Virus record (IMG/VR): IMGVR_UViG_2724679237_000005
Coordinates: 32,001-96,000 of that record
DNA: 64,000 nt
Strand: one strand, 5' to 3'
Source: a virus
Taxonomy: Duplodnaviria > Heunggongvirae > Uroviricota > Caudoviricetes
The notes below the pieces were generated by a model. The model was given only the letters and a program-made list of their open reading frames with translations. It was not told where the DNA came from and did not search any database. The translations under genes and the position numbers were made by a program. Shown here piece after piece: positions 1,735-47,457 of this stretch (position 1 is the stretch's first letter; each line of letters opens with the position of its first letter).

Positions 1735-2838
1735 TCACACCGCCACTGGAACCTTGATCCACGGTAGAGGGTCATAGCCAAGAATTAAAACCTCGTCCCA
1801 TTTGAAATCATCCAACTCTGACCATTCATGAGGGAAAATAACGACCGGATCTGAATGCTCTGGAGCCTGTCGTTTCATTAGCTCACACACACCTTCCATG
1901 TGGTTGTTGTACAAATGCACGTCAAAGCCAAAATGCACAAATGCACCGGCCATGTGACCCGTAATCTTCGCGAGAAAATGAGTGAGAATGCCATAGCCAG
2001 CAATATTGAATGGCATACCAACAAAAGTGTCTACGCTACGCTGTACGAGGCAGGAGTTGAGGATGCGTTTGGGGATTCCAAGTTCATCCAGTTCGGCTTC
2101 AGTAACACTGCCGTCCATCTCCAGATCGTATAGCATCTTGGTGTAGATAGACTCGTAACCGAGGCGACTGTGTTGAAGACCAATGTCAGTTGCCATCGTT
2201 AAACGGGTTTCAAAATCCAGCTCACGACTCCACAAAGAGAAGACAAAGTGGCAAGGTGGCAGCTTCATATCCTCAAGCTCGCCTACGTTCCATGCGTTAA
2301 GCATGATGCGACGATCGGTAGGGTTCGTGCGCAGTGTATCGACAATACGCTGTAGCTGATCGATTTCACGGGACAGCACTACGCGATCTTCACAGATACC
2401 CAGGTATCCCTCGACTTTGTACCCGCGTTCACGGAAAGTAGCGATCTTGCTCAGATATTCACTATGGCTCACGATGCGGGTATCTTCCCATCGACGCCAC
2501 TGCTTACCGTAAACCGGCCCCAAATCGCCATTCTCATCGGCCCATGCATCCCAAATCTTAACGCCGTTATCCTTGAGAAATTGGATGTTGCCCGTGCCTT
2601 TCAGATACCACTCAAGTTCGACAAGTAGTGGCTTAAGATTTACCGCCTTTCCAGAAATAAGCGGCACAGTCCCACCAGTAAGCATGTAGTAAGAGGGAAC
2701 GTAGCAGGTGCTTAAAGTACCAGTGCCTGTGCGATCATCAGCCTGCACGCCGCTTTTAAGCACCGTCTCAATAACTTTTGCATACGATGCGTTTGTTACC
2801 TGACCGTTCGTATGCTCACGATTCAAAAGGAGTGACAC
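1735..2838 (-). CDS. thyA: thymidylate synthase
   Basis: DRTGTGT, GPVYGKQWR, DRRIMLNAWN and LPPCH motifs; GTG start with GAGGT RBS. Confidence 0.9.
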   Translation of the reverse strand: MSLLLNREHTNGQVTNASYAKVIETVLKSGVQADDRTGTGTLSTCYVPSYYMLTGGTVPLISGKAVNLKPLLVELEWYLKGTGNIQFLKDNGVKIWDAWADENGDLGPVYGKQWRRWEDTRIVSHSEYLSKIATFRERGYKVEGYLGICEDRVVLSREIDQLQRIVDTLRTNPTDRRIMLNAWNVGELEDMKLPPCHFVFSLWSRELDFETRLTMATDIGLQHSRLGYESIYTKMLYDLEMDGSVTEAELDELGIPKRILNSCLVQRSVDTFVGMPFNIAGYGILTHFLAKITGHMAGAFVHFGFDVHLYNNHMEGVCELMKRQAPEHSDPVVIFPHEWSELDDFKWDEVLILGYDPLPWIKVPVAV

Positions 2839-2853
2839 AATAACCTCACAAAG

Positions 2854-2869
2854 ATAAGTAATTACTTAT
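2854..2869. promoter_or_regulatory. perfect 16-bp palindrome ATAAGTAATTACTTAT upstream of thyA (member of ACTTACTTAT motif family)
   Basis: read directly; 16 nt upstream of thyA start. Confidence 0.5.
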
Positions 2870-2912
2870 TCATTGCGTGAGTTTACATTTATTGAGGGGA
2901 CAAGGCCAGATA

Positions 2913-2945
2913 GATAAAAAAATGGTGGCCATAGGCCACCAAAAA
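2913..2945 (-). terminator. rho-independent terminator after NTP-pyrophosphatase gene
   Basis: 8-bp stem tggtggcc/ggccacca followed by T-run on minus strand. Confidence 0.55.
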
Positions 2946-3009
2946 CGAATAGTTGTTTCAGGAATTTAACGCGCCAACACAATATACATAGATAGATAAC
3001 TACCTACAA

Positions 3010-3879
3010 TTATTTTTTGATCATTCCATACATTGCTGAGGATTTAGCTTGCTCAACAAAGGAGGATAAATCGACATCACTATAGGTTGGAGACTTCAGA
3101 ATCTTTCCATCGGAAATTCGAAAACCGATCATCTTATCGGTGCCATCAGCATGGCGGAATCCCAGATCTGAAGAGTCGTATTTGCAGTTGGCCACAGCCT
3201 GGCGACGTTCCTCGACATCAGCAGGCCATAATTTTGTCATGTTCGACCGATGAATTTCGCCAACCAGCTCGACTACATTGATACCGAGGAAATCAGCCAG
3301 TCGATAGGTCATCATGCACGCCACATAGATTTTGTTCATGACACGGCGCAGTTCCTGAATCAGTTCAGAATCCTTAACAGTCTTGTTCTCAAGTTTATCT
3401 GCCAGCTCTTCGAGCATACATGACGCCTCACGAGCTTCCTGAAATGGCATTGCCATATCATCGAAAACAGTGTTACCGGGCACAAAAATTGTCTGCATAA
3501 AGCGATCAATGCTCTGTTCCTGCGTGTAATAGGTCATGCCGGTAGAAATACCACCTTTGATGGCGACCATCGTACCAACACCAACGTATAAAAAGTCGGC
3601 CATTGCATCCAGCAGTTGCTCAATATCCCCATTCATTGCGGCTGGAATACCTTCCACTACAGCTTCTTCATGAATCAGGCTTGCACGGAGACGAAGCAGC
3701 TCTGGTGTCGGCATAACGCGTCTCGGATGCTGGAAGAGTTCATGAAACTGATCGACCATCTTGTAAATACTTTCAGTAGCTACACCATGACCTTCATGCA
3801 ACTCATATGGTTCTGGCTTAAATCCAATGAGACGATCGGTGGCAAGTTTCAGGTGGTCAGTCAGTTTGGTAAAGTTCAT
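3010..3879 (-). CDS. putative all-alpha NTP pyrophosphohydrolase (MazG or dimeric dUTPase-like)
   Basis: EExxE-type acidic helical motifs (LIHEEAVVEG, MLEELADKLE); start reassigned to internal ATG with AAGGAA RBS because upstream part overlaps nrdB. Confidence 0.4.
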   Translation of the reverse strand: MNFTKLTDHLKLATDRLIGFKPEPYELHEGHGVATESIYKMVDQFHELFQHPRRVMPTPELLRLRASLIHEEAVVEGIPAAMNGDIEQLLDAMADFLYVGVGTMVAIKGGISTGMTYYTQEQSIDRFMQTIFVPGNTVFDDMAMPFQEAREASCMLEELADKLENKTVKDSELIQELRRVMNKIYVACMMTYRLADFLGINVVELVGEIHRSNMTKLWPADVEERRQAVANCKYDSSDLGFRHADGTDKMIGFRISDGKILKSPTYSDVDLSSFVEQAKSSAMYGMIKK

Positions 3880-5204: not shown

Positions 5205-7520
5205 TCAGATTTTGCAGGCTCCGTCGCACTCATCTTCTGGCTCGACGGCTACAGCTTGCGTCAGTGGATTCTGCGGTTCGTCGTCATCACGCTTTCCTGC
5301 CCCATCTCTGGTGTTGTGGTAGTAAAGCGTTTTAACTCCCATCTTGTAGGCGAGAAGCAAATCTGACAGTAGCGTCATCATTGGGACTTTATCGCCTTCA
5401 AAGCGAGAAGGGTCATAGTTGGTATTGGCTGAAATAGCCTGGTCAAAGAACTTCTGGATGATCGCCACCTTTGTCAGATAGCCGCGGTTGTCCGGCATAT
5501 CCCACAGGTATTCATACTGTTCCTTCAGTTTTTCAAACTCAGGCACGACCATCTTAACGATGCCGTCCTTAGAAGATTTCACCGACACCGGGCCACGAGG
5601 CGGTTCGATGCCGTTGGTGGAATTAGTGATCTGGCTGGAAGTCTCGCATGGCATTTGTGCCGTCAGTGTGGAGTTGCGAAGGCCGTATTTTGCAATACGT
5701 TCACGCAGTTCTTCCCACGGCATCTTTAACTCAAAGTTGGTTTCGCCACTTTCGTCTAATGAAGAACGGTAATGGTCGATCGGCAACTGACCAATTGCGT
5801 ACTTGGTCTGCTCAAACCAGTCACACTCACCTTTTGCTTCAGCAAGTCGGCAGCTGGCATCAAGAAGGTAATACTGGATAGCTTCGAACGTTTCATGCAC
5901 CAGTTTATTGCCAGCGGTATCAGAATAACGAACGCCATTCTTTGCCAGGTAATAAGCAAAGTTGGTTACACCAATTCCCAAGCTACGACGAGCTTTGGCA
6001 GGCACTTCGGCTGCCTCCATCGGATAGTCTTGATAATCCAGTAACGAATCCAGTGCAGCAACGGCATAGAACGCCACCTCTTTAAGAGACTCCAGTGAAC
6101 GGATAGCTCCGAGGTTAAAAGCGGATAAAGTGCATAGCGCGATCTCACCGTTCGGGTCGTCGGTAAATGCCAGTGGACGAGTGGGTAGAGTGATCTCCAT
6201 GCACAGGTTTGACTGGCGGACAGGTGCAAGAGCAGGAATGAAAGCGCCATGCTCATTAATATGATCTACGTTCGCAATATAAATTCGGCCCGTGGACGCT
6301 CGTTCCTGCATCAGAGATGAGAACAGCTCAATGGCAGGTACTGACTTCTTGCGAATTGAATCATCGGCTTCGTATTTATGGTACAGCTTTTCAAACAGCT
6401 CCTGGTCTGTGAAGAAGGCTTCGTACATATCAGGCACATCATGCGGGCTGAACAGAGTGATGTTCTCGCTTCTGACGAGTCGACGGTACATTAGACGGTT
6501 ACTCATGACGCCGTAATCAAGATGGCGAACGCGGTTTTCATCAATACCACGGTTATTTTTCACCACCAGCAGACTTTCAACTTCAAGATGCCATATCGGG
6601 TAAAACGCTGTTGCTGCGCCACCACGAACACCTCCTTGCGAGCAAGATTTAACAGCAGTCTGGAAATGCTTCAGGAATGGAATAACTCCGGTATGGGTGG
6701 CTTCACCATTGCGGATCTCGCTGCCCAGCGCACGGATACGGCCAAAACCAATACCAATTCCAGCACGACGTGAAACGTAGTCGATAATTGCGGCTGAAGC
6801 TGCACTAATCCCTTTCAGACTATCGCCAGACTCAATCAGCACACAACTGGAGAACTGACGGGTTGGAGTACGGACGCCGGCCATGATTGGTGTGGGCAGA
6901 GACAGTTTGAACGTACTTGTAACGTCATAGAAACCTTTGACCATCTCCATACGTGTTTTGCCAGCGCAGTCGTCTTCCCAATTCTGGAACAGACACATGC
7001 CCACCAGCATATAGATATGTTGCGGCCCCTCATGAATCTCACCAGTAACACGGTTTTGAACGAGGTATTTGCTTTGCAATTGCACCGTAGCCGCATAGCC
7101 AAAAAGATCGTCACGTTTAGGCTTAATGTAATTGCCGAGTTCTTCGATCTCTTCAAATGAATAATGTGTCAGCAAATCCTTGTCATAAACGCCCTTGTTA
7201 ACGTTCTTGATAATGTGTTGGTAGAAGTTCGGATAGTCGTAACGACCGAAGGCATCTTTGCGGATTTTAAAAATGTTCAGGCGGGCAGCCACCTGTGAGT
7301 AATTTGGTGCTTCTGGTGAGATCAAATCAGCGGCAGATTTAACCAAAGCCTCATGCAACTGGCTGGTGGTAATCCCATCAAAAATGCTGGCCGCAGCTCC
7401 CATTGCTACAGCGGATGCGCTTACACCACGAATGCCTTCTACGCCATACATTACGACGCGGTTGTATTTTTCTTCGGATAACGGCTCTGTTTGGCCGTTA
7501 CGTTTTACGATGCTTATCAT
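5205..7520 (-). CDS. nrdA: ribonucleotide reductase class Ia large subunit
   Basis: Near full-length similarity to NrdA incl. PTPIMAGVRTPTRQFSSCVLIE, CSQGGVRGGAAT and C-terminal CDGACKI. Confidence 0.9.
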   Translation of the reverse strand: MISIVKRNGQTEPLSEEKYNRVVMYGVEGIRGVSASAVAMGAAASIFDGITTSQLHEALVKSAADLISPEAPNYSQVAARLNIFKIRKDAFGRYDYPNFYQHIIKNVNKGVYDKDLLTHYSFEEIEELGNYIKPKRDDLFGYAATVQLQSKYLVQNRVTGEIHEGPQHIYMLVGMCLFQNWEDDCAGKTRMEMVKGFYDVTSTFKLSLPTPIMAGVRTPTRQFSSCVLIESGDSLKGISAASAAIIDYVSRRAGIGIGFGRIRALGSEIRNGEATHTGVIPFLKHFQTAVKSCSQGGVRGGAATAFYPIWHLEVESLLVVKNNRGIDENRVRHLDYGVMSNRLMYRRLVRSENITLFSPHDVPDMYEAFFTDQELFEKLYHKYEADDSIRKKSVPAIELFSSLMQERASTGRIYIANVDHINEHGAFIPALAPVRQSNLCMEITLPTRPLAFTDDPNGEIALCTLSAFNLGAIRSLESLKEVAFYAVAALDSLLDYQDYPMEAAEVPAKARRSLGIGVTNFAYYLAKNGVRYSDTAGNKLVHETFEAIQYYLLDASCRLAEAKGECDWFEQTKYAIGQLPIDHYRSSLDESGETNFELKMPWEELRERIAKYGLRNSTLTAQMPCETSSQITNSTNGIEPPRGPVSVKSSKDGIVKMVVPEFEKLKEQYEYLWDMPDNRGYLTKVAIIQKFFDQAISANTNYDPSRFEGDKVPMMTLLSDLLLAYKMGVKTLYYHNTRDGAGKRDDDEPQNPLTQAVAVEPEDECDGACKI

Positions 7521-7523
7521 GTA

Positions 7524-7562
7524 TCACCAAATAAAGAGGGCCACTATATTTAGTGGCCCATG
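7524..7562 (-). terminator. terminator between RuvC-like gene and nrdA
   Basis: 9-bp stem gggccacta/tagtggccc followed by T-rich run on minus strand. Confidence 0.5.
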
Positions 7563-7593
7563 TTAATAGATAAGCACTTACCTATCAATGAGA

Positions 7594-8163
7594 TCAAATG
7601 AGAGACTTGAGAACATCGCGCACCTGGCGAAACTGATCCGTTTGCATACCGGTATGGATGGCAGCCACCGCATCAGCCAAATGTTCGTTTTTGTTCACGA
7701 GAACATCCTGTCCAGATTGCTTACGACGCAGCCACGGTGCTTTAGGGTGTTTTTTCGTAGCCCACTGGATAATCTCTTCTTTCGATGTAGTAAGTTTATT
7801 GCCGACAAAATGCTTAATTTCGTTTGGAGTAACCTGGATCAATGGCTTATCCACACACGCAAGTACACCGATACAAATACCGTAAGACGTCTGCGAACGA
7901 GAGTTTTGGCTCCCAACCGGTAGCTCACAAAAAACCATATTCGCCTTATCAATGATTGGCTTCGCAACACGCCATATTTCACTGGCACGGCGCAGATCGT
8001 CACTGTTCACACGAACGGTCTTTTTGTTACTCCCCGCTTTAGTCTCAACAAGAGTAAGGCCGTGAATCTCAAGTTCGTCCGTTTCAAGGTCTAAAGTGCC
8101 CACAGCAAGCCCAAAGTTGCTCATCGAGGGATCAACACCAACTACGCTGATTTTTTTACTCAT
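7594..8163 (-). CDS. RuvC-like Holliday junction resolvase
   Basis: N-terminal VVGVDPS acidic motif and C-terminal EHLADAVAAI resembling RuvC DAADALA motif; AAGGAGA RBS. Confidence 0.5.
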   Translation of the reverse strand: MSKKISVVGVDPSMSNFGLAVGTLDLETDELEIHGLTLVETKAGSNKKTVRVNSDDLRRASEIWRVAKPIIDKANMVFCELPVGSQNSRSQTSYGICIGVLACVDKPLIQVTPNEIKHFVGNKLTTSKEEIIQWATKKHPKAPWLRRKQSGQDVLVNKNEHLADAVAAIHTGMQTDQFRQVRDVLKSLI

Positions 8164-8172
8164 ATAGTCTCC

Positions 8173-8916
8173 TTACCATGTTCCCCATAGAGGGTTTTCC
8201 AATAATCTCGCCTCCAACGAATTGGCTACTATTGCCGTTTGCAACGTTGGTTGGGGATAGTTTGCAAAGTCTGAATACTCATTTTCCTGCGTGACACGTT
8301 TATCTACGGCATGTTTAACGCCACTTGCTATGAAATGACGCATGATGCCCAACAGCCTCCGACTGTCTGCACTATCGTTTGCTAAAACATGAGGGAGCTG
8401 AAGTTCGATTTCTACCATTTCTCCATACTTACCAACAAACTGTAGTTTGTCCGCACTGTACTTTTTATCCCTCCTTTGGATAAGGAAACCAGTAAAAGCA
8501 TCACCTGGCGATGCCAAACTATCCACCCGCTTATTGGCAAGTCGAATAAGGTTCGTGAAAGCCATACAGTGATGCGCACCCATTCCCCCAAAGAACCCTT
8601 CGCTATTAATGTTAAGATCTTCAGTTTCATGGGATGCAATAAACCCAGGCCCGACGTTGGGAAGATATCCCCCCTCAACAAAAGGATTAATCAGGATCGG
8701 CGCAATACATCCAGGTGGTAGTGATTTCAAACTTTGCATCAATGGCGTCTCGGATATTAGACCAAGCAACGCGGCGAATTGTACTCCGTCAATATTGTTG
8801 CTGCCCCACAGAATACGTGGAGCCGCACCATTGGAAGTATGCCCATTGATCAGTTTTATCGACTGCATCACTGCAAATACCTGCAAAAACTGCGAGCGGC
8901 TTAATTTAAACGACAT
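8173..8916 (-). CDS. hypothetical protein
   Basis: 247-aa ORF overlapping sbcC-like stop by 11 nt; no recognisable motif. Confidence 0.5.
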   Translation of the reverse strand: MSFKLSRSQFLQVFAVMQSIKLINGHTSNGAAPRILWGSNNIDGVQFAALLGLISETPLMQSLKSLPPGCIAPILINPFVEGGYLPNVGPGFIASHETEDLNINSEGFFGGMGAHHCMAFTNLIRLANKRVDSLASPGDAFTGFLIQRRDKKYSADKLQFVGKYGEMVEIELQLPHVLANDSADSRRLLGIMRHFIASGVKHAVDKRVTQENEYSDFANYPQPTLQTAIVANSLEARLLENPLWGTW

Positions 8917-31945: not shown

Positions 31946-33208
31946 ATGCCTTTTTTAATTTTCATTATTATACTACTGCTCACCGTGATTTTTTGGGATT
32001 GGGTTGTTTTAAATGGTCAAATTGTTGGAACATTGGCTACAGCATTTGCTTTTATAGCAACAGCATGGAATGCCTACGAAGCGAGAAAAAGTGCAAAAGC
32101 AGCTTTTTCAGCCCTTCAATTAACAACAGAATCATTGTTCGAAATGCGAAAGAGTGCATTTAAACAATGGTTTGATTCCTTATTAAATCAACATGATGAG
32201 CTATGTCTTCTTGCAAAACAAATTATCGATAAACGCAAAGTTAATTTAAACAGCGATGAGTTACATAGACTATATTACCCATTGGTAAAACAGCATGAGG
32301 TAATACAGTATGTGAAGCATATTATTAATATTTTTGAGTATGTGGATAGTTCATTTTATATTGATGGGGAATGTCTAAAGGAAAAAAGAGCGTATGTGTC
32401 ACAATTAATTTTCAAAATCCCACCTCAGATGAAGTTGATCATTGCTATCTTTGGATTAAAAATCGATTATTGTGAACATATTAATTCGGGAAAACTGTGT
32501 TGTTTATTGAATAAATATGATTTTTTCAATGATGAAATATTTTTTGATGATGCTTATTCAGATATGCCTTATCTGGATGCATTCATAAACCTTAGATTCA
32601 ACAAAATATTCAAATCTCGAATGATAAATTATTTTGATAATATCATTAAAAGTTATTATGTTCCATCGGACGTTAAAAGGGACTGGATGTTTCGAAACCC
32701 AAAGCTCGTGCCGTCGGTTCTTATGAATTATAAAACTCCTTGTTCTCCTATAATTAATGATTACTTTGAGAAGTTGCCTTTACATGTAAGAAACTACTTT
32801 GAGGAACTACTTAAAACCGCGAATGATAGAGTTACTCATTTTGACGTTTACATCCCACGCCTTATTGGTTGTTCAATCGTGCAACATTACGAAGATGTGC
32901 CTTCCGAAAAAAACAGGTTAAATGACAGGAATGATGTAATAGCTATGGCTGAAGATTACATCGAGAAAAGAAAATATAATCAACTGGATTACATACTTGA
33001 AGATATATACTTCAAGAGTGACGAAGATATAATCCCTGGCCACCATTTGATTGTGGCATTTGATGACTATGAATTTAAATTATCACTCATTAAGATAAAT
33101 GAGAATAAAGATAGCGATAATCTTTTAAATCGAATTTATACTGAATCCAGTAGCATGGTTAAAGAATATAAGCGCGAAATATTAAAACTGGGCGACTATG
33201 TAAAGTAA
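31946..33208 (+). CDS. membrane-anchored protein of unknown function in AT-rich island (candidate defence or exclusion protein)
   Basis: 420-aa ORF, two N-terminal hydrophobic helices, strongly AT-rich versus surroundings, own terminator. Confidence 0.6.
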   Translation: MPFLIFIIILLLTVIFWDWVVLNGQIVGTLATAFAFIATAWNAYEARKSAKAAFSALQLTTESLFEMRKSAFKQWFDSLLNQHDELCLLAKQIIDKRKVNLNSDELHRLYYPLVKQHEVIQYVKHIINIFEYVDSSFYIDGECLKEKRAYVSQLIFKIPPQMKLIIAIFGLKIDYCEHINSGKLCCLLNKYDFFNDEIFFDDAYSDMPYLDAFINLRFNKIFKSRMINYFDNIIKSYYVPSDVKRDWMFRNPKLVPSVLMNYKTPCSPIINDYFEKLPLHVRNYFEELLKTANDRVTHFDVYIPRLIGCSIVQHYEDVPSEKNRLNDRNDVIAMAEDYIEKRKYNQLDYILEDIYFKSDEDIIPGHHLIVAFDDYEFKLSLIKINENKDSDNLLNRIYTESSSMVKEYKREILKLGDYVK

Positions 33209-39052: not shown

Positions 39053-40198
39053 ATGAAATACATAAAACCTTCATCGTTGCTGGCATTAACTTTGCTTTTT
39101 AGCTCTGGATTCGTTAACGCAGACAATAAACAAACGCTGATAGAAGCCGCTAACGCAGGTGATACCGCAGCACAAAGTGAGTTAGGGACAAATTATTTGG
39201 ATGGTGTCAATGGTTTTGATAAGGATGTAGTTGAGGCCAAGAAGTGGATTGATCTCGCTGCAGAAAAGGGAGATAAAGTAGCATATTATGCACTTGGAGT
39301 TATGTACACATTTGGCGAGGGTGTAGATAAAGACCTAAATAAAGCTGTTGAGTACTACAAACTTGCGGGGGATGCTCGTGAAGGTAGAGCCTACAACAAT
39401 CTTGGTGCTATTTATCAAAAGGGGATGCTTGGTAAAGTAGATCATGCACTCGCCATTAAATACTTCAAACTAGCCTCTGATGCCGGGTATGTTAAAGCAA
39501 CTTCAGTTCTTGGGGCGTATTACCAATATGGTAAAGGCGTTCAAAAGAATTATAAAAAGGCTTTTACTTATTACAAAAAGGCGGCAGACCAAGGCAGTTC
39601 AGAAGCTATGATAGGATTAGGAATACTATACGATGATGGGTTAGGCGTTAAACGCAATGATGCAGAAGCAGTTAAGTGGTATAAAAAGGCAGCGGAACTT
39701 GGAAACGCCGACGCCATAACCAATCTTGGCATTATGTATGAGAATGGGGAAGGAGTAAAAAAGGACTATAAAAAAGCAGCCGACCTTTATCAGACTGCTT
39801 GCAATAAAGGAGAAAAAAGAGGCTGTGAATACATTACTGAACTGAAAGAAAGCGGAAAATATCGAGTATCTGATTCCAAAGCCAAATCAAAATCAGATGT
39901 ACAGCGACTTATTGCTAAATCCATTGATAAAGGCGTTAACGCAACTTTTACCTGGCAAGGTGATGACGCCACATTCACCGCTAATGGCGGCAAAATTGAC
40001 TGCACTTTCCTAAAGGATTTTTCAGAGAAAGGAGGCAATCTGGCTACCTCGTTTGTTTGCACCGATAACGTTCAAATCATCCTGAAGCAATTCAGAGATA
40101 CCAAGAATGCCTACCTCGCGGTAATGACTGACAACTTCAACACAGAAGTTAAATCATTTTCGGTCAATGTTTACGTGACTAATACTGGTTCAAACTAA
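39053..40198 (+). CDS. secreted Sel1-like repeat (SLR/TPR-like) protein with extra C-terminal domain
   Basis: signal peptide then about 6 repeats of A..W(Y)..AA..G...A...LG.MY..G.GV..D; plus strand, lower GC. Confidence 0.75.
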   Translation: MKYIKPSSLLALTLLFSSGFVNADNKQTLIEAANAGDTAAQSELGTNYLDGVNGFDKDVVEAKKWIDLAAEKGDKVAYYALGVMYTFGEGVDKDLNKAVEYYKLAGDAREGRAYNNLGAIYQKGMLGKVDHALAIKYFKLASDAGYVKATSVLGAYYQYGKGVQKNYKKAFTYYKKAADQGSSEAMIGLGILYDDGLGVKRNDAEAVKWYKKAAELGNADAITNLGIMYENGEGVKKDYKKAADLYQTACNKGEKRGCEYITELKESGKYRVSDSKAKSKSDVQRLIAKSIDKGVNATFTWQGDDATFTANGGKIDCTFLKDFSEKGGNLATSFVCTDNVQIILKQFRDTKNAYLAVMTDNFNTEVKSFSVNVYVTNTGSN

Positions 40199-41371
40199 TG
40201 CTGCTATGCCTTTTACCTTGCTTAAAAGTTCAAGCTGTCGTGAGTAAGGTTTTGCGCAATAGTAGGCTTTGATAATCTTCCCCGGTGTCGCATCGCCGGG
40301 GTCGAGTCCTTCCTCGCCCAAACACGCAACTTTGACATTAAGACCGATACTGGTCAGTCGCCTGGCTGCGGCCATAGTGTTGCGTATAGCTTGCTTTTCA
40401 CTATCCCACATCATGATCACATTACGTAACCCACGCGCCTTGAGCGTCAGGAACGCGCCTAACTGATCTTCTGCATCCTGAGTGGTGTTACCAGATAGAT
40501 GCATCCCGAACGTTCCTATTGGTTCCACGTAATCACGTAATGTTTCTTCGTCAAAAATAGCTCGTTTAACCCCCATAACATCGAACGCCCCCTCACAGAC
40601 AACTACAGTCTGTTTGCCGACTGCATTATGGCCGTTGTAGAGAAACTTACCTGAAGCTGGAAGCTGCATAGGAAAGAGGTAGCGGCGTTCTGCTGTACCG
40701 GTAATGTCTCGTCCCTGAAATGTCTTCATTACCCCATCCAGATCGTAAACCGGTATCAGTATTCGCATATCGAATATCTGCCCTTTTACCTGATCTGTAT
40801 ACGGATCTACATAAGCGTGCTTGCCTTCGACGCAGTATCGTAGGTCAAAATACTTTGCCATTTCAGGTGATATGTTTCGTTCAACCAGATAGTCTGGAAG
40901 ACGGCCATCTATAGGAAGCTCGTAATGACGAGGGAGTGCAACTGGCCCCTCTAACTCGACTGTGCTTGCAAGCACTAGCTCTTCTTTCTTTGGTGCCCAC
41001 CCCTGGGAAAGAAGGGCGTTCTGCACATATTCCTCGAACTGTCGTCGTGATTTGCCGCTGTAGTGCTTGAGGAAGACCAGCTTATTGAACTGAATCTCTT
41101 CGGGATGATCACCAGCGAAGCATTTACCGACGCCACTGGTCAGATTGAAATATACCTTCCAGTTGGAGCTGCCGCATACCGGACACTCTTTGATATTCAC
41201 TTCACGACCGCGAGCACTCACGCCTCCACGTCGATAAACGATACCTTCAGTATCCAACCATTGTTCAAAATCTAATTCGGCAATTAGCTCTTTCAGCTCG
41301 CTCACGATAATTCCACTTTTAACAGGCAATATTGTGACCAACCTAAATGTTGATATAACATAAAGGCTCAT
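40190..41371 (-). CDS. DnaG-like DNA primase (zinc finger + TOPRIM)
   Basis: CPVCGSS...C zinc ribbon, TOPRIM VVVCEGAFD; start taken at internal ATG (ORF-track start is GTG at 41443). Confidence 0.7.
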   Translation of the reverse strand: MSLYVISTFRLVTILPVKSGIIVSELKELIAELDFEQWLDTEGIVYRRGGVSARGREVNIKECPVCGSSNWKVYFNLTSGVGKCFAGDHPEEIQFNKLVFLKHYSGKSRRQFEEYVQNALLSQGWAPKKEELVLASTVELEGPVALPRHYELPIDGRLPDYLVERNISPEMAKYFDLRYCVEGKHAYVDPYTDQVKGQIFDMRILIPVYDLDGVMKTFQGRDITGTAERRYLFPMQLPASGKFLYNGHNAVGKQTVVVCEGAFDVMGVKRAIFDEETLRDYVEPIGTFGMHLSGNTTQDAEDQLGAFLTLKARGLRNVIMMWDSEKQAIRNTMAAARRLTSIGLNVKVACLGEEGLDPGDATPGKIIKAYYCAKPYSRQLELLSKVKGIAALV

Positions 41372-41424
41372 GTGTTTTTCTTTTGTGGTTTGGCAAAAGA
41401 AAAGTTGTTTCACCAATGAATCAA

Positions 41425-41456
41425 GCGTGGAGGTGTTCTCCACGCTTATTTTTTAG
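41425..41456. terminator. hairpin with flanking T/A runs between helicase and primase genes
   Basis: stem gcgtggag/ctccacgc; overlaps the alternative primase GTG start. Confidence 0.35.
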
Positions 41457-42793
41457 GTAACGTCTAAGATTCGCTCAATGAAGCGCATTTGTTCGAGGTT
41501 TTGTTTAACGCGAATGCTGATCCCTCCCTGCTGGTTACGCGAACCAGCAAAGTAGAGACGAGCCTCTCCTTTCGCTTCTTCTTCTTCGGTTTTGTTGATC
41601 GTTATTACCAGGTCAGCAATACGTACTTTTTCGATGTTGTCGGCAGCGTGCATCATTGTGGCAACTTCTGACGCGCCACCTTCACGGTTTGTTTGCGACG
41701 CCGTGATACCAGCAACGTTATGCTTGTCATAAAGAGCACGTAAATCGGTGTAGATACTACGAATGTTGGCGCGATCATCACGAAGGTCATAACTGGCACG
41801 CATCAAATCTGCGTAGTCGACAACAACCATGTCAGGCACCATGCCATTGGCTTTCATACTGTTAAGCATACGGTCCAGATCTGCCGGTGACATACTTCCT
41901 GACGGACGCTCAACAACCCACAAACTACCAATCCCCTTAGAGGCTCCCAACTCTGCCAACTTACGATGAACTTCATCGCGCCGTTCCACCAACTTGGACA
42001 TTTCCGTCTCCGACAATCTTGCATCAAAACGGTCGGACAAAATGTTGGTGTGAACCTCCAGCGAGAGATACAGAACATTGTAGCCAGCAAGCGTTGCGTT
42101 TATGGAAAACTCACCCATTGCGGTCGATTTACCGGATTTAGCGAACCCCATGAAGAGCACCATTTCGCGCTTTGCCCAGCCTTTTTGGTACAGCAACCTA
42201 TCGAGAAGAGGGAGTCCAGTTGTAATACTGTTTGGTACATACTCCTCTGAAGCCTCATATTCACGCGCTTTCAATCGCTCACTTGCGGAGGTGTAGTAGT
42301 CATAGATTCCGGTCGCTTCGTTCGATCCAATCTGCTGAACCTTGGCCATGATTGCCATCGCCCCCTGAAAGTCGCCCTTCTCTTTCAGTTCAGCAGCCTT
42401 AATCAGAGCATCATCAAACGCTACGCTTTTTGCGAAGGTTGATACCTGGTCAACCATGTACGAGGTATCGGACAATTTTTCTGCAAGGATGCGCTTAAAC
42501 GCAGCAACAACATCGGCGAATAGTTCCTCACGGATAGTCTTATCGCGTTTCGCACGCTTAAGCATATCCAGAATTGCAGATGAAGAGGGCGCGCTCTTGT
42601 ACATACGGTAATAGCCCGAAACCATATTAACCAATATGGCATTGGCCGCATTGGCAAATTGGCTAGGCACAACCAGATCTCCCGCACGAGTAAGAAACTC
42701 GTGATCACGACAAAAATATGCCGTCAGTCTGTTCTGGAAATCTTCATCAAACTCTTCGGACAGCCCGCGTCCTGTATGGCAAAGTTCGGTCAT
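41453..42793 (-). CDS. DnaB-like replicative helicase
   Basis: RecA-fold Walker A GFAKSGKST, Walker B VVVDYADL; ATG start with AAGGA RBS. Confidence 0.8.
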   Translation of the reverse strand: MTELCHTGRGLSEEFDEDFQNRLTAYFCRDHEFLTRAGDLVVPSQFANAANAILVNMVSGYYRMYKSAPSSSAILDMLKRAKRDKTIREELFADVVAAFKRILAEKLSDTSYMVDQVSTFAKSVAFDDALIKAAELKEKGDFQGAMAIMAKVQQIGSNEATGIYDYYTSASERLKAREYEASEEYVPNSITTGLPLLDRLLYQKGWAKREMVLFMGFAKSGKSTAMGEFSINATLAGYNVLYLSLEVHTNILSDRFDARLSETEMSKLVERRDEVHRKLAELGASKGIGSLWVVERPSGSMSPADLDRMLNSMKANGMVPDMVVVDYADLMRASYDLRDDRANIRSIYTDLRALYDKHNVAGITASQTNREGGASEVATMMHAADNIEKVRIADLVITINKTEEEEAKGEARLYFAGSRNQQGGISIRVKQNLEQMRFIERILDVT

Positions 42794-42814
42794 GTGCTTT
42801 CCTTTGTTTTTTTT

Positions 42815-42833
42815 AAACAAATTGTTTTCTAGT
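42815..42833 (-). promoter_or_regulatory. same element, site 4 (upstream of helicase gene)
   Basis: AAACAAATTGTTTTCTAGT. Confidence 0.5.
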
Positions 42834-42838
42834 ATTAG

Positions 42839-43579
42839 TTAATTAGATAGGGGATCAATAAACCGCCGTGCTTCTTCCAGTTCTTCTGGAAAGTGGGCGG
42901 AAATAAGGCGCTCTGGAACGATTTCCATTAGCCAGATAGCGGAGAAAATTGCGCGTATGCGCTTGCTGCGGGGGATGGTGCGTAAACGCTCCAGAATCCA
43001 CTCAAAATAGCTTTCCTGAATCGGGTTGAACTGCATGTCTCCCATATGCTTAAAGCTAACCAGAGAGTCATCCAGACGGGTTGTTGCGCGTCTGGCTAAT
43101 TTCTCTTCGAATATCTCAATCAACTCTGGCTGCCACAAATGCTGTGGGCGCGGCAGCTTGTCCCACAGACGTCGTGCAGCTGCGGAAAGAACGGTGGAAA
43201 TAAAGTAGTCGTATGAGCAGCAATAGCGGTCAGCAAACTGGCGTGCTTTCCATAGCGACGTTTTATTGGCAGTCGACAACTCCTGATAAGGCAGGCGTTT
43301 TAACCCGGTGGTGAACGGAGCTGTTTCAAAGTGTTCGCGACCGTGCGTCAGCATGATATTTGAGTACTGACGTTTGTATGCCTCCGTAAAAAGACAGGTG
43401 GCCATGAGAGGATGCATGTCGCGGTAATCAAACCACTTCGTCTCGAAGAGTTCAGCCTCGTCTTTACAGCGCGACAAACCAATGTTTTCAGCGACCCACT
43501 TGTCCATAACAGCGGTATTCCACTCTGTCATGAAGTCGTACTGGTCGTTGTCGATGGTATCGAAAAAGATTTGGCTCAT
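42839..43579 (-). CDS. hypothetical protein (position suggests helicase loader or replication accessory)
   Basis: 246-aa ORF directly upstream of helicase; AGGTGA RBS. Confidence 0.4.
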   Translation of the reverse strand: MSQIFFDTIDNDQYDFMTEWNTAVMDKWVAENIGLSRCKDEAELFETKWFDYRDMHPLMATCLFTEAYKRQYSNIMLTHGREHFETAPFTTGLKRLPYQELSTANKTSLWKARQFADRYCCSYDYFISTVLSAAARRLWDKLPRPQHLWQPELIEIFEEKLARRATTRLDDSLVSFKHMGDMQFNPIQESYFEWILERLRTIPRSKRIRAIFSAIWLMEIVPERLISAHFPEELEEARRFIDPLSN

Positions 43580-43860
43580 GTGGCTCACCTGGTAGGTAGT
43601 TACTTACTTATCACAATGAGCGGATGATAGCGACTGGTGGCAGTTTTTGGAAGTGGAAACGGAAGGGAGTTGTTCTGGTGGTGTCTTTTAAAAGACCTGC
43701 TTCCGTATATATTTAATAAGTTACTTATTATTTATATATACAGAAGCAGGCATAACTTGTCGTCTTAGACGCCCAGAAGCTCTACACTTTGAGCCTGTTA
43801 AATTGATTAAAACCTATGTGTAAAATAGAACGCATTAGTCAGTAGCAAAGAGATGCAATA

Positions 43861-44628
43861 ATGGACGATTTATCGGTATACGCGAGATCATTGGATAAGG
43901 CTAAATACTATGTTTACTGTCTCTATGATACAGAAGACAAGATGAAAAGACCGTTTTACATAGGAAAAGGCAAATCGACTCGTTGTCTCGATCACATCAA
44001 GTATCCCGATGACTCTCCCAAATCCATGCGGATCAAAGAACTTTTGGCTAATAAAAAATTAGGCATAGATATTCTTCGTCATGGTATGGATGAAACCACA
44101 GCCAAACTTGTTGAGGCGACATGCATCGACCTTATGGGGGTCGGAGAGCTTACGAATAAGGTTCGAGGAAGTGGTTCCATGATGGGCAGAATATCACTGG
44201 ACGCCTACCATCACTTAGTGCTGCAAGAGGAAACTGAAATTGCTCCTGAGCACGCCGGTCTTGCCTTCCTGCTAAACAGCACCTACAAGTCAGGAATGTC
44301 CGCTCTGGCATTATATGAAGCTACGCGTGGCGTATGGGCAAAGGTTCCAAGAGACGAGAATCTCAAATATGCCTACGCTACATATGGTGGGCTGATAATG
44401 GAAGTTTATCAGATTGAATGCTGGGTCAAAGCCGGTTCTCAGCAGTACTTTACAAGGGATATAGCTCTTGGCCCCGACACAAAACGTTATGAATTTGTTG
44501 GCAGAATAGCCGATGAGCATATTAGAAAACTGTATGTAGGCAAATTAATCAAGAAGCCACCAAGCTACGGTAGCCCTTTTGTGAAGGTTGGGATGGTTAG
44601 GACTGAACATAGTGTTAGCGCGGCATAA
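43861..44628 (+). CDS. GIY-YIG domain nuclease
   Basis: N-terminal YYVYCLYD...FYIGKGKSTRCLDH matches GIY-(8-10)-YIG-R spacing; plus strand. Confidence 0.6.
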   Translation: MDDLSVYARSLDKAKYYVYCLYDTEDKMKRPFYIGKGKSTRCLDHIKYPDDSPKSMRIKELLANKKLGIDILRHGMDETTAKLVEATCIDLMGVGELTNKVRGSGSMMGRISLDAYHHLVLQEETEIAPEHAGLAFLLNSTYKSGMSALALYEATRGVWAKVPRDENLKYAYATYGGLIMEVYQIECWVKAGSQQYFTRDIALGPDTKRYEFVGRIADEHIRKLYVGKLIKKPPSYGSPFVKVGMVRTEHSVSAA

Positions 44629-44645
44629 AGCTGACACTGTAGTTA

Positions 44646-44683
44646 TGCATTGGCGCAATGTACGCGCCAATGCATGATTTTTA
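44646..44683 (+). terminator. rho-independent terminator after GIY-YIG gene
   Basis: 12-bp perfect stem atgcattggcgc/gcgccaatgcat, 7-nt loop, T-run. Confidence 0.55.
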
Positions 44684-45040
44684 ACCTTTCTTCATCAACT
44701 CTCGTTTGATTTCATCGGTACGCATCGTGACATCGGCAGCGGTGATCGCCTCATTCAATTTCACGATGTCCTCGATTTCCTGCGGTGACTTCTCTGCCAG
44801 ATGGAAAATGGCTGCTCGAATCACGTCAGAACGAGTGAACTTCTCGAAGCGAGGGATGAACTTCATCATCTCCAGCAGTTCGAAGTATTCGTCCTCCAGT
44901 GACATTGTGCGGCTTTTAATTTTCTCTTTGCCACGAGTCGGGCGTCCCTGTGGTCTGACTGGTTGGCGCAAAGGAGTTGTGTTCTTAGCCGGTGCATCAG
45001 GCTCTTTGCGCTTTGCTAGGTCACCCATTTTCATGGACAT
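44681..45040 (-). CDS. ParG-like partition protein (putative ribbon-helix-helix)
   Basis: small basic protein immediately downstream of parA-like gene, start overlaps its stop. Confidence 0.45.
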   Translation of the reverse strand: MSMKMGDLAKRKEPDAPAKNTTPLRQPVRPQGRPTRGKEKIKSRTMSLEDEYFELLEMMKFIPRFEKFTRSDVIRAAIFHLAEKSPQEIEDIVKLNEAITAADVTMRTDEIKRELMKKG

Positions 45041-45708
45041 TATTCTTCTTCCTCCAGACTCAACAGATAATCTACAAATTCTTCAAACTCGGCTTCCGCC
45101 TTTTTGTCGCGCTCGCTACCGGTCATTTCAAAGATAGAACGACCAGACTCTTCCGCATCATCATAGACGTTGCGGTTATATAGATTGACTGGCGCAGACT
45201 CGATTCCAAACGTCTCAACAATCTCTTTAGCCGCCAGAATGCGAGACACTTGTGATGGCAAAGCCGGGCACTGGTTCATGACCGCGCGGACCTTCACTTT
45301 ATCGTTTACATTGCGAACATTGTCGATAATAGGATCGATGTCACGTAAAGATTTCAAATCACGACGCTTAGGACGCAGCGGGATAATGATAACGTCAGCC
45401 ATCAGCATCGCTTGTCGCTGAATTTCGGAGTCAAAGCCACCAGCATCTACCACTACATACTCAGCTCTACCCTGAAGCGATTTTAGGTGCTTAATGATGT
45501 CATCCTGAACGTATGCAAAAGGAATCAGCTCAAGGTCTTCGTTCTGTCGACGGTCTTCACACCAGCTCGTTGTCGTGCGCTGAATATCTATATCGGTGAT
45601 ATAAACCTTCTTCTTCTTTTTGACTTTCAGGCAAACGGCAATTTGCTGGGCAACGGTGGATTTGCCAGGCCCGCCCTTTGTGCCGCCAACCACAAAGATC
45701 TTGGTCAT
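45040..45708 (-). CDS. parA: ParA/ParF-type partition ATPase
   Basis: deviant Walker A GGTKGGPGKST, short type Ib form. Confidence 0.8.
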   Translation of the reverse strand: MTKIFVVGGTKGGPGKSTVAQQIAVCLKVKKKKKVYITDIDIQRTTTSWCEDRRQNEDLELIPFAYVQDDIIKHLKSLQGRAEYVVVDAGGFDSEIQRQAMLMADVIIIPLRPKRRDLKSLRDIDPIIDNVRNVNDKVKVRAVMNQCPALPSQVSRILAAKEIVETFGIESAPVNLYNRNVYDDAEESGRSIFEMTGSERDKKAEAEFEEFVDYLLSLEEEE

Positions 45709-45743
45709 TGGAGAGTTCCCTTTGCGTATATAATTATCGTCTG

Positions 45744-45762
45744 AAACAACTTGTTTTCTTAT
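45744..45762 (-). promoter_or_regulatory. same element, site 5 (upstream of parA)
   Basis: AAACAACTTGTTTTCTTAT. Confidence 0.5.
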
Positions 45763-45854
45763 ATGTGATATAGCCTAAATGCCTACGGCTGTGGTGTAAA
45801 GGTTAAATGGTAGGTGCTGCCTTAGAATTTTTAGGCGAGAATCAATGGCTGTTA

Positions 45855-45888
45855 ACAAAAAAGGCGACCAAAGTCGCCTGATTTTTAA
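45855..45888 (-). terminator. rho-independent terminator
   Basis: stem aggcgac/gtcgcct flanked by A-run and T-run. Confidence 0.5.
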
Positions 45889-46637
45889 TCTTTTAGGTAT
45901 AAACCTACTGGAGTTCTTGTTTTGCGGGAGATGATAAGTACGATAAATTTCTGAACGTTAACTTGCACTTTGTTTGGGAGCCAAGAGCTTAACTCTGCAT
46001 CAAGCAACAATCCTCTGTTCCACGGCAAAAATCCGGTTTCTTTCCCCATCCCGTACTCGCCTAACACATCCTCGAACGTTTCTGTTTTGGCATTGTATAT
46101 ACGCACATCGCCGGTTCGCATGAGAGGCCCTGCCCAGATCTTAGCACCAGGAATGGTTTGTGTATCGTCGCAGACTAAATGCTCATACCAATGAAGAAGA
46201 AAGAGATAGGTACGGTGACACAATCCTCGCTGACGACGCTCTCTGACAGTTTCGACACCAGCTACCTGGTAACATTCGATCTCATTACCGTCTTCAACAA
46301 AACTATATTCACGCAGAGCTATCCTACCAGCGATCGTATTTTTGTTTTCGTCCAGAAGCCCGGACTGGAGCACCTCTTTGATAATCTCTTCTTCAGGGGC
46401 ATCTTCATCCGCTCGATCTAAGATGAATTCGCTCAGGTCGCCTTGGTCGCGCGCACCTACACGTTCCATAGAGACATACAGGCAAATGTCATCTTCTGGT
46501 TCAATGATTTCAATTTCTGAGATTTTATAGAGGGAGGCTTCATTGATAAGAAAGCCAAAACGAACAACACGAGTCTCCCCTTTATGAGGAAACTCGCTTA
46601 GATCTTTTGAATATGCGCTATCTAGTGTAGGAGCCAT
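45885..46637 (-). CDS. hypothetical protein
   Basis: 250-aa ORF. Confidence 0.45.
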   Translation of the reverse strand: MAPTLDSAYSKDLSEFPHKGETRVVRFGFLINEASLYKISEIEIIEPEDDICLYVSMERVGARDQGDLSEFILDRADEDAPEEEIIKEVLQSGLLDENKNTIAGRIALREYSFVEDGNEIECYQVAGVETVRERRQRGLCHRTYLFLLHWYEHLVCDDTQTIPGAKIWAGPLMRTGDVRIYNAKTETFEDVLGEYGMGKETGFLPWNRGLLLDAELSSWLPNKVQVNVQKFIVLIISRKTRTPVGLYLKD

Positions 46638-47005
46638 TTTGTAGCAGAATCATCAGCCTTAACCGTGCTGACAATGCTACCATGATTGCGTAAGAAGCGG
46701 CGAATAGAATGTTCAATAACCTCCGAAAAAGCCTCGATAAAACGAGACAGCTCAGGGTACTGTTTAGCTGGCTTGACTACAAAACGAACACGACCATTCA
46801 GGTAAATTGCTTCAGCTAATGGCTTCACGCTTGCACCAGCGCGCTCAACATCGTCTTTGAAGGTAACGATGAAGCGTGAGTCTTCCGGTTCAATAGCGTC
46901 ATTATTGAGCTTACGTACTTCAAGCTTGTGCTGATTCAGCACATGAGTCTCGATAATACTCGTGCAATCGCGAATAGTTTGTATAGAACGTTTCTCGTTC
47001 AGCAT
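46622..47005 (-). CDS. hypothetical protein
   Basis: 127-aa ORF with AAGGTGGA RBS. Confidence 0.45.
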   Translation of the reverse strand: MLNEKRSIQTIRDCTSIIETHVLNQHKLEVRKLNNDAIEPEDSRFIVTFKDDVERAGASVKPLAEAIYLNGRVRFVVKPAKQYPELSRFIEAFSEVIEHSIRRFLRNHGSIVSTVKADDSATKWLLH

Positions 47006-47229
47006 GTGTCCACCTTAGCCGTTAACACAAGTGTCATTGCGGCACCCCTCTCGGGGTTGAAGGCTACGAGGATGCGTAGCCTGTATGTGCCCACTTACGT
47101 GGATGCCTAATAAATCTACATCAAATTACTAAATGATTCAACATGAGCTTGAGTGAACAGGCGTGTATATGAGTGAAGATGCCATCTTTAGGATAAAAGG
47201 TAAACTGAGACCACTCATCAATCATCGAC

Positions 47230-47457
47230 TCAGTTCAGGTGCCCCCACTCACACAGCCTTTCACCTATCGTATTGTGGATAAGCAACTGTCGCTCCGTTT
47301 CCTCAGTCATAAAATCCTCTCTACTCACATAGATAGGATTTGCAGCATCGCAGAATAGCACGCCTGGAGCCTGCGTCTTAATCACGCACCCATTTATCAA
47401 ACAGCTCGCGATGAACACCAGAGGCATCTTTTTGCCGCACTTCATTAACCGTTTCAT
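47230..47457 (-). CDS. o-spanin (Rz1-like lipoprotein) in alternative frame overlapping Rz
   Basis: signal peptide with lipobox LINGC; start codon uncertain. Confidence 0.45.
   Translation of the reverse strand: MKRLMKCGKKMPLVFIASCLINGCVIKTQAPGVLFCDAANPIYVSREDFMTEETERQLLIHNTIGERLCEWGHLN

Follow-up and report, generated by a model that had tools for sequence, protein, structure and literature searches.

A diverged PD-T4-3/CMoRE-type nuclease gene as a probable exchangeable defence cassette of an SSU5-like phage-plasmid

The stretch of 64,000 nucleotides analysed here (the window; positions 32,001 to 96,000 of IMG/VR record IMGVR_UViG_2724679237_000005) is part of an SSU5-like Escherichia coli phage-plasmid. 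It carries a gene for a 255-amino-acid (aa) protein whose N-terminus holds a GIY-YIG nuclease domain. In this study, we found that this gene is probably, at about three chances in four, a diverged PD-T4-3/CMoRE-type modified-DNA nuclease gene and an exchangeable defence cassette of the phage-plasmid. The protein is homologous to CMoRE over both of its domains and has an intact active site. The gene forms a self-terminated cassette in a hotspot and has been exchanged horizontally between backbones. By analogy with its characterised relatives, the protein would be an active nuclease that depends on a DNA modification, presumably one of those discussed below; it would share their oligomeric state and would be expressed during lysogeny.

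Homology of the nuclease protein to CMoRE

The gene and the parts of its product are as follows.

43861-44628, + strand: nuclease gene of the PD-T4-3/CMoRE family, 255 aa, stop codon included (open reading frame list, PADLOC, PHROG, PDB)
43894-44175, + strand: N-terminal GIY-YIG part with Y17, Y19, Y33, R41, H45, E85 and N99
43996-44031, + strand: short, non-acidic loop, aa 46-57
44233-44595, + strand: C-terminal modification-sensing domain, aa ~125-245, with a predicted PUA-like barrel fold

The open reading frame (ORF) begins with ATG, and homologues begin at the identical methionine. It is the sole long ORF of its interval; the other ORFs of the cassette are short, overlapping and spurious. 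A 255-aa protein with an N-terminal GIY-YIG motif had been proposed by an earlier reading made from the letters alone (the sequence-only reading). This was confirmed by the ORF, by the motif residues (Y17-V-Y19 ... F32-Y33-I-G35, then R41, E85 and N99) and by a match of aa 32-104 to the Pfam model PF22945, LEM-3_GIY-YIG, which was marginal (E 5.5e-7, 30.1 bits, cut-off 27). The same reading called the C-terminal domain unrecognised. That description stands for Pfam and NCBIfam, neither of which matched the C-terminal half, and the NCBIfam scan of the protein gave no match at all. It does not stand overall. The PADLOC profile of PD-T4-3 matched aa 11-231 with profile positions 11-238 of 256 (E 1.3e-23), and a phmmer search against PDB matched only 9u7u/9u7z and 9u75/9u8d (aa 12-230, E 2e-15, 32% identity). 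These entries are PD-T4-3 of E. coli APEC O1 and O157:H7, published as CMoRE (PMC12923530), and the PDB entry title reads '5hmC specific restriction endonuclease ... PD-T4-3', where 5hmC is 5-hydroxymethylcytosine. Since the homology to CMoRE is full-length, the C-terminal domain corresponds to the modification-sensing domain of CMoRE. The protein also matched PHROG 5356 (E 2e-99), a family that is unannotated in PHROGs.

The active site was compared with that of CMoRE in a collinear alignment. Y17, Y19, Y33, G35, R41, H45, E85 and N99 are the same in CMoRE and near-invariant among 228 full-length relatives. The three tyrosines align with Y17, Y19 and Y31 of CMoRE, and R41, E85 and N99 align with its catalytic residues. 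A previous report showed that Y17, Y19 and Y31 of CMoRE, together with the catalytic Arg and Glu, are needed for defence and cleavage (PMC12923530). The sequence-only reading had named missing catalytic residues as one point that would speak against its proposal, and all of them are present on alignment. CMoRE V92 corresponds to V84 in the nuclease, and CMoRE L96 corresponds to C88, which is invariant across the branch.

An AlphaFold2 model of the nuclease (predicted local distance difference test score 84.8) gave the four CMoRE entries as the top Foldseek matches (E 2.5e-11). When the full model was superposed globally on CMoRE, the fit was poor (template-modelling score 0.39, root-mean-square deviation 16 Å) because a flexible linker joins the two domains; a model of the C-terminal domain alone removed this difficulty. 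The structures named for comparison with its fold were af2351, ASCH domains, YTH domains (Mmi1, YTHDC1, YTHDC2, YTHDF1), the EVE proteins 2ar1, THYN1 bound to DNA with 5-methylcytosine, PH1033 and Rpa0253, the EVE domain of VcaM4I (an enzyme dependent on 5hmC), and McrB N-terminal domains. A Pfam scan of the nuclease showed no sequence-level similarity to EVE, YTH, ASCH or SRA. The protein differs in this from the type IV enzymes with PUA-type readers (the EVE-HNH enzymes VcaM4I and TspA15I, and McrB N-terminal domains), and it also differs from them in having GIY-YIG at the N-terminus and the reader at the C-terminus. Fusions of EVE with GIY-YIG were reportedly predicted by Bell and colleagues in 2020.

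A LEM-3/ANKLE1-type nuclease was considered and rejected: only the nuclease-domain model matched, barely over its threshold, and Pfam found neither ankyrin repeats nor a LEM domain. The PGAP name 'LEM-3-like' describes the flavour of the nuclease domain only.

A self-terminated cassette in a variable slot

Escherichia phage CMS-2020a, PhiR41_1 and more than 100 E. coli plasmids (~107-114 kb) share 98.6-99.7% identity with the nuclease region. On the partition side, matches extend to Salmonella phage SSU5 and to plasmids of Klebsiella, Enterobacter and Salmonella in the hundreds. In Cyrano, SSU5, Shigella sonnei p38, pSCU-306-2 and one Salmonella plasmid, homology breaks off at ~43750-43760, just past a palindrome, and backbone homology resumes exactly at 44683, within the stop codon (44681-44683) of a 119-aa gene. 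The cassette is therefore 43761-44682, hairpin included. Its GC content of 43.7% compares with 48% for the genes on either side. The cassette stands alone, with its own terminator, in the plasmid-maintenance region, where it separates the replication genes from the partition genes. The cassette, its bordering elements and the contents of the same slot in relatives are listed below.

43761-44682, + strand: accessory cassette of 922 bp, comprising leader, nuclease gene and terminator (backbone-homology breakpoints)
44645-44682, + strand: intrinsic-terminator-like hairpin followed by GATTTTT, part of the cassette (inverted-repeat search, folding)
43696-43750, no strand: backbone palindrome at the left edge of the cargo slot, outside the cassette (inverted repeats I1 and I2), containing the motif copy at 43719
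Slot in Cyrano, SSU5 and Enterobacter/Citrobacter plasmids: DUF2971 protein matching the PADLOC candidate PDC-S31
Slot in pSCU-306-2: KAP-family NTPase fragments matching PDC-S49
Slot in S. sonnei p38: unclassifiable 350-aa gene, + strand
Slot in Salmonella plasmid CP053410: essentially nothing, ~25 bp

Only one sampled record has an empty slot. When the E. coli plasmid pLAO18 (NZ_OP242248.1) was compared with window positions 41800-45750, the cassette was 98-100% identical and the flanking replication and partition genes were 76-88% identical. As the cassette is far more alike than the backbone, these results show directly that the cassette has recently moved between diverged SSU5-like backbones.

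The terminator described by the sequence-only reading was borne out. The hairpin arms (44645-44656 and 44664-44675) are 12 nt long and 100% complementary around a 7-nt loop, and the fold has a free energy of -25.1 kcal/mol (z -4.95), equalled by 0 of 200 shuffles. A simple terminator scanner failed to call the hairpin, probably because extension of the stem consumes part of the T-run; folding and the inverted-repeat search confirmed it. The hairpin borders directly on the stop codon of the convergent gene of 119 aa that lies downstream of parA. No T-tract could be read on its - strand side, so it looks unidirectional and would serve the nuclease gene.

Divergence from the replication block was likewise confirmed. 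The three left neighbours (40190-41443, 41453-42820 and 42839-43588) are all on the - strand, and annotated relatives name the first a DNA primase and the second a DnaB-like helicase. The nuclease gene, on the + strand, is thus transcribed divergently across a spacer of 272 bp, where 280 bp had been given.

Proposed function and alternative explanations

PD-T4-3 was reportedly first found by Vassallo and colleagues in 2022. CMoRE is a single-component type IV restriction enzyme whose C-terminal domain binds 5hmC and whose GIY-YIG domain (GIYxY-YIG: Y17, Y19, Y31) cuts DNA with 5hmC or its glucosylated form, 5ghmC, at CN11/N9G, leaving 2-nt 3' overhangs (PMC12923530, Liu et al. 2026). It acts as a tetramer, a dimer of dimers needed for activity, and protects ~10^5-fold against T2, T4 and T6 without abortive infection (PMC12923530). 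The nuclease resembles CMoRE as a single gene of ~255 aa with an N-terminal GIY-YIG domain, the triple tyrosine, Arg, Glu and Asn, and collinearity over aa 12-230. It differs in riding on a phage-plasmid, in a 4-residue insertion (YKSGMS region) in the sensing domain, and in a C-terminal tail, KKxRSxGxPFVKVG, that is conserved within its own branch. PD-T4-3Capno of Capnocytophaga is 48% identical to the founder and is also a modification-dependent nuclease; it cuts T4 and mom-modified Mu DNA and does not cut T4-GT7 DNA (Rodriguez-Rodriguez et al. 2025, PMC12366544). The same report ties diverged PD-T4-3 homologues from metagenomes 'almost always' to modification-dependent defence (PMC12366544). 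PD-T4-3Capno thus indicates that diverged members of the family keep their function at low identity. In a natural E. coli isolate only two systems were active, one of them PD-T4-3, and a DefenseFinder survey already lists PD-T4-3 in SSU5-group phage-plasmids of E. coli and Shigella.

By analogy with these enzymes, the C-terminal domain, predicted to be PUA-like, may bind the hypermodified bases of incoming phage DNA. The likeliest target would be the 5-hydroxymethyl- or glucosyl-hydroxymethyl-cytosine of T-even phages, and other bulky modifications are conceivable. The N-terminal GIY-YIG domain (Y17/Y19/Y33/R41/E85/N99, with Mg2+) would then cut the modified DNA, while the unmodified host chromosome and the phage-plasmid would be spared. 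The phage-plasmid would gain a host that survives virulent competitors. Among the roles offered by the sequence-only reading, that of a defence nuclease is preferred because of the full-length homology, the candidate defence genes that otherwise occupy the slot, the published function of PD-T4-3 homologues and the DefenseFinder survey.

Several results weigh against a CMoRE-like defence enzyme. Identity to the characterised enzymes is only ~23-32%, and ~23% in the sensing domain. Specificity is unreadable from sequence because the only 5hmC contact named in CMoRE is a main-chain atom of Y127. A sigma-70-like promoter scan of 43300-45200 gave 0 sites, and a TAAAAT seen by eye at 43821-43826 has no properly spaced -35 element. 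The acidic lid between helices 2 and 3 of CMoRE is absent. In CMoRE, an acidic loop over the active site, with four consecutive acidic residues in a 15-residue insertion, is an autoinhibitory lid, and the 4A mutant, in which the lid is neutralised, cuts unmodified DNA and is toxic (PMC12923530). The loop after H45 of the nuclease, IKYPDDSPKSMR, has 12 aa and an acidic run of 2 (DD), whereas that of CMoRE has 20 aa and a run of 4 (DDDE or DDDD, within VDDDE/ADDDD). The short 12-aa loop occurs in 182 of the 228 close relatives, and only 26 have an acidic run of at least 3. Since the lid is missing and its neutralisation is toxic in CMoRE, the CMoRE lid model does not account for self-control in this branch.

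These observations could mean that the lid-less, short-loop branch recognizes another modification (for example adenine carbamoylmethylation, arabinosyl-hydroxymethylcytosine or deazaguanines) or is controlled otherwise, through tight expression or a toxic or abortive mode of action, instead of restricting 5hmC/5ghmC DNA directly. The toxicity of the lid mutant, the at most two adjacent acidic residues in the loop and the divergence of the sensing domain favour this, as does the plasticity of substrates in the family: one homologue cuts both T4 and Mu DNA, and activity on arabinosyl-hydroxymethylcytosine phages is weak (PMC12923530). However, the CMoRE authors ascribe the lid to 'most' members only, so that lid-less members already fall within the family (PMC12923530). 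Stable maintenance of the gene in over 100 sequenced plasmids of E. coli also speaks against constitutive toxicity, and a search of the 922-bp cassette for a partner gene (antitoxin or immunity) gave none. We consider this alternative quite unlikely. A wider proposal is that a large lid-less PD-T4-3 branch has its own self/non-self discrimination or targets other hypermodifications, that its sensor is a cryptic PUA-like (EVE/YTH-type) domain, and that its cassettes are swapped at a slot bounded by the 55-bp palindrome. Such a sensor runs contrary to the published view of a unique fold, in which 5hmC sits not in a pocket but at the edge of the domain, and structural homologues were not found (PMC12923530). 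We regard this proposal as doubtful.

The sequence-only reading also offered a free-standing homing endonuclease, which would cut cassette-less relatives at the slot and spread by recombinational repair. The present/absent polymorphism of the cassette with its one 'empty' site, its much higher conservation than that of the flanks, and distant phage relatives annotated 'putative homing nuclease' all fit such behaviour. However, the C-terminal domain corresponds to the modification sensor of CMoRE rather than to a NUMOD, helix-turn-helix or zinc-finger DNA-binding module, and no Pfam domain for NUMOD, IENR1, helix-turn-helix or zinc finger was found in the protein at E <= 1. Relatives are solitary genes in unrelated chromosomal contexts (Providencia, Shewanella and others) and also plasmid genes; the slot usually holds unrelated cargo and so offers no conserved target site for homing; and DNA degradation by the characterised relatives follows no strict sequence specificity (PMC12923530). 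Homing is therefore very improbable. An equally slim chance is given to an anti-host or lytic-cycle nuclease like T4 EndoII, which, once the phage-plasmid is induced, would break down the DNA of the host or process that of the phage. In favour of this, the element is a phage, and lysis and tail genes lie nearby in relatives, yet nothing was found in support of the anti-host factor of the sequence-only reading. The gene is missing from most SSU5-like elements including SSU5 itself and is thus not a core phage function, it stands as an isolated, self-terminated unit in the plasmid-maintenance region, it has full-length homology to a defence enzyme, and most family members occur in bacteria without such a phage. 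I-TevI, the Seg proteins and T4 EndoII also differ from the nuclease in C-terminal module, genomic behaviour and family.

The PD-T4-3/CMoRE reading offers a function for a gene that RefSeq names only "LEM-3-like GIY-YIG domain-containing protein" or "hypothetical". The nuclease is a new, uncharacterised lid-less-branch member of a known family; publications already cover the family, how it works and its occurrence in SSU5-group elements, and current understanding is unchanged. Because it lacks the acidic lid, the branch lends itself to a natural test of autoinhibition as published for CMoRE, and it may be a source of 5hmC-reading enzymes whose properties differ. These clinically common phage-plasmids of the SSU5 type carry a defined slot beside their partition genes for the exchange of single-gene defence cassettes.

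Distribution and relatives

The nuclease protein was found at >=95% aa identity in 135 PLSDB plasmids. The cassette DNA was present in 107 of 5426 complete E. coli genomes (~2%), always plasmid-borne, on SSU5-like phage-plasmids, and never chromosomal. The superfamily comprises 1782 clusters (50% identity, E <= 1e-3). Defence islands were looked for around three chromosomal homologues, in Providencia, Shewanella and another gammaproteobacterium; each homologue stands alone in a small, variable islet, which weakly fits a single-gene system.

At local positions 5691-8744 of a gammaproteobacterial chromosome assembled from a metagenome, a homologue with 59% identity is found directly downstream of two RelA_SpoT-domain genes, with IS110 and DDE transposases and a DEAD/ResIII helicase nearby; this locus may be a small defence islet. 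A 76%-identical homologue is encoded at positions 1273-2007 of the 4165-bp Salmonella enterica plasmid OX345333.1, and thus small plasmids are a further vehicle for the gene. Full-length relatives (aa 12-236, 28-30% identity) also occur in lytic jumbo phages of Serratia, Pectobacterium and Klebsiella, among them MK994515 (Serratia phage Moabite), MF285618, ON375847 and MN642089. The annotation of these proteins is GIY-YIG or homing endonuclease; they may instead be modification-dependent nucleases of the PD-T4-3 kind with which phages compete against one another.

Backbone elements and neighbouring genes

The palindrome at the left edge of the slot is ~55 bp long and A+T-rich (CCTGCTTCCGTATATAT...ATATATACAGAAGCAGG), and a further palindrome, AATAAGTtACTTATT, lies inside it. 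Cyrano, SSU5, S. sonnei p38, pSCU-306-2, the 'empty' Salmonella CP053410 and Enterobacter relatives all retain the ~55-bp palindrome, which could serve as a site of partition or recombination or as part of an origin. The window was searched for another copy of the spacer 43589-43860, as expected for iterons or parS repeats, and contained none; matches of the spacer at two places per record are the palindrome matching itself in reverse.

The two motif copies that the sequence-only reading placed upstream of the nuclease gene are present: an exact ACTTACTTAT at 43602 and a copy with one mismatch at 43719. Assigning them to that gene was misleading. Both lie left of 43760, in sequence kept by relatives without the gene, and are therefore backbone features rather than part of the cassette. 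Across the window, ACTTACTTAT occurs with at most one mismatch at 14 sites against 3.08 expected, a count reached by 0 of 100 shuffles; the sites are 2854, 7576, 12250, 15766, 17226, 20756, 34803, 43602, 43719, 54258, 61176 and weaker ones. The motif is one arm of a longer inverted repeat, ATAAGT/ATAGGT ... ACTTAT, with variable spacing and a perfect palindrome at 2854-2869. Twelve of 13 sites are intergenic, and most lie just upstream of - strand gene starts. The mRNA-sense strand reads UAAGUAAGUAA, which gives stop codons in all three frames. The element could be an operator, a promoter or an intercistronic element of the phage-plasmid backbone.

On the right, the convergent - strand 119-aa gene (44681-45040) overlaps a ParA-type ATPase gene (45040-45708). 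Its annotation in Cyrano is 'RelE/ParE putative toxin', and it had no Pfam match here. Its position suggests that it encodes the centromere-binding partner of ParA, and the toxin label looks doubtful.

The 350-aa slot gene of S. sonnei p38 (NZ_CP099775.1, local 2174-3226, + strand) matched nothing in Pfam or PADLOC and is an unclassified candidate defence gene; it has a clear TTGACA/TAGAAT-type promoter and a hairpin of its own. A second variable slot lies at 45816-47250, between parA and the lysis genes, where homology is interrupted not only to Cyrano and SSU5 but even to PhiR41_1, which is 98% identical. In the window it holds two - strand ORFs, 45885-46637 (250 aa) and 46622-47005 (127 aa), with no Pfam or PADLOC match; in Cyrano it holds a KacT-type toxin-antitoxin pair.
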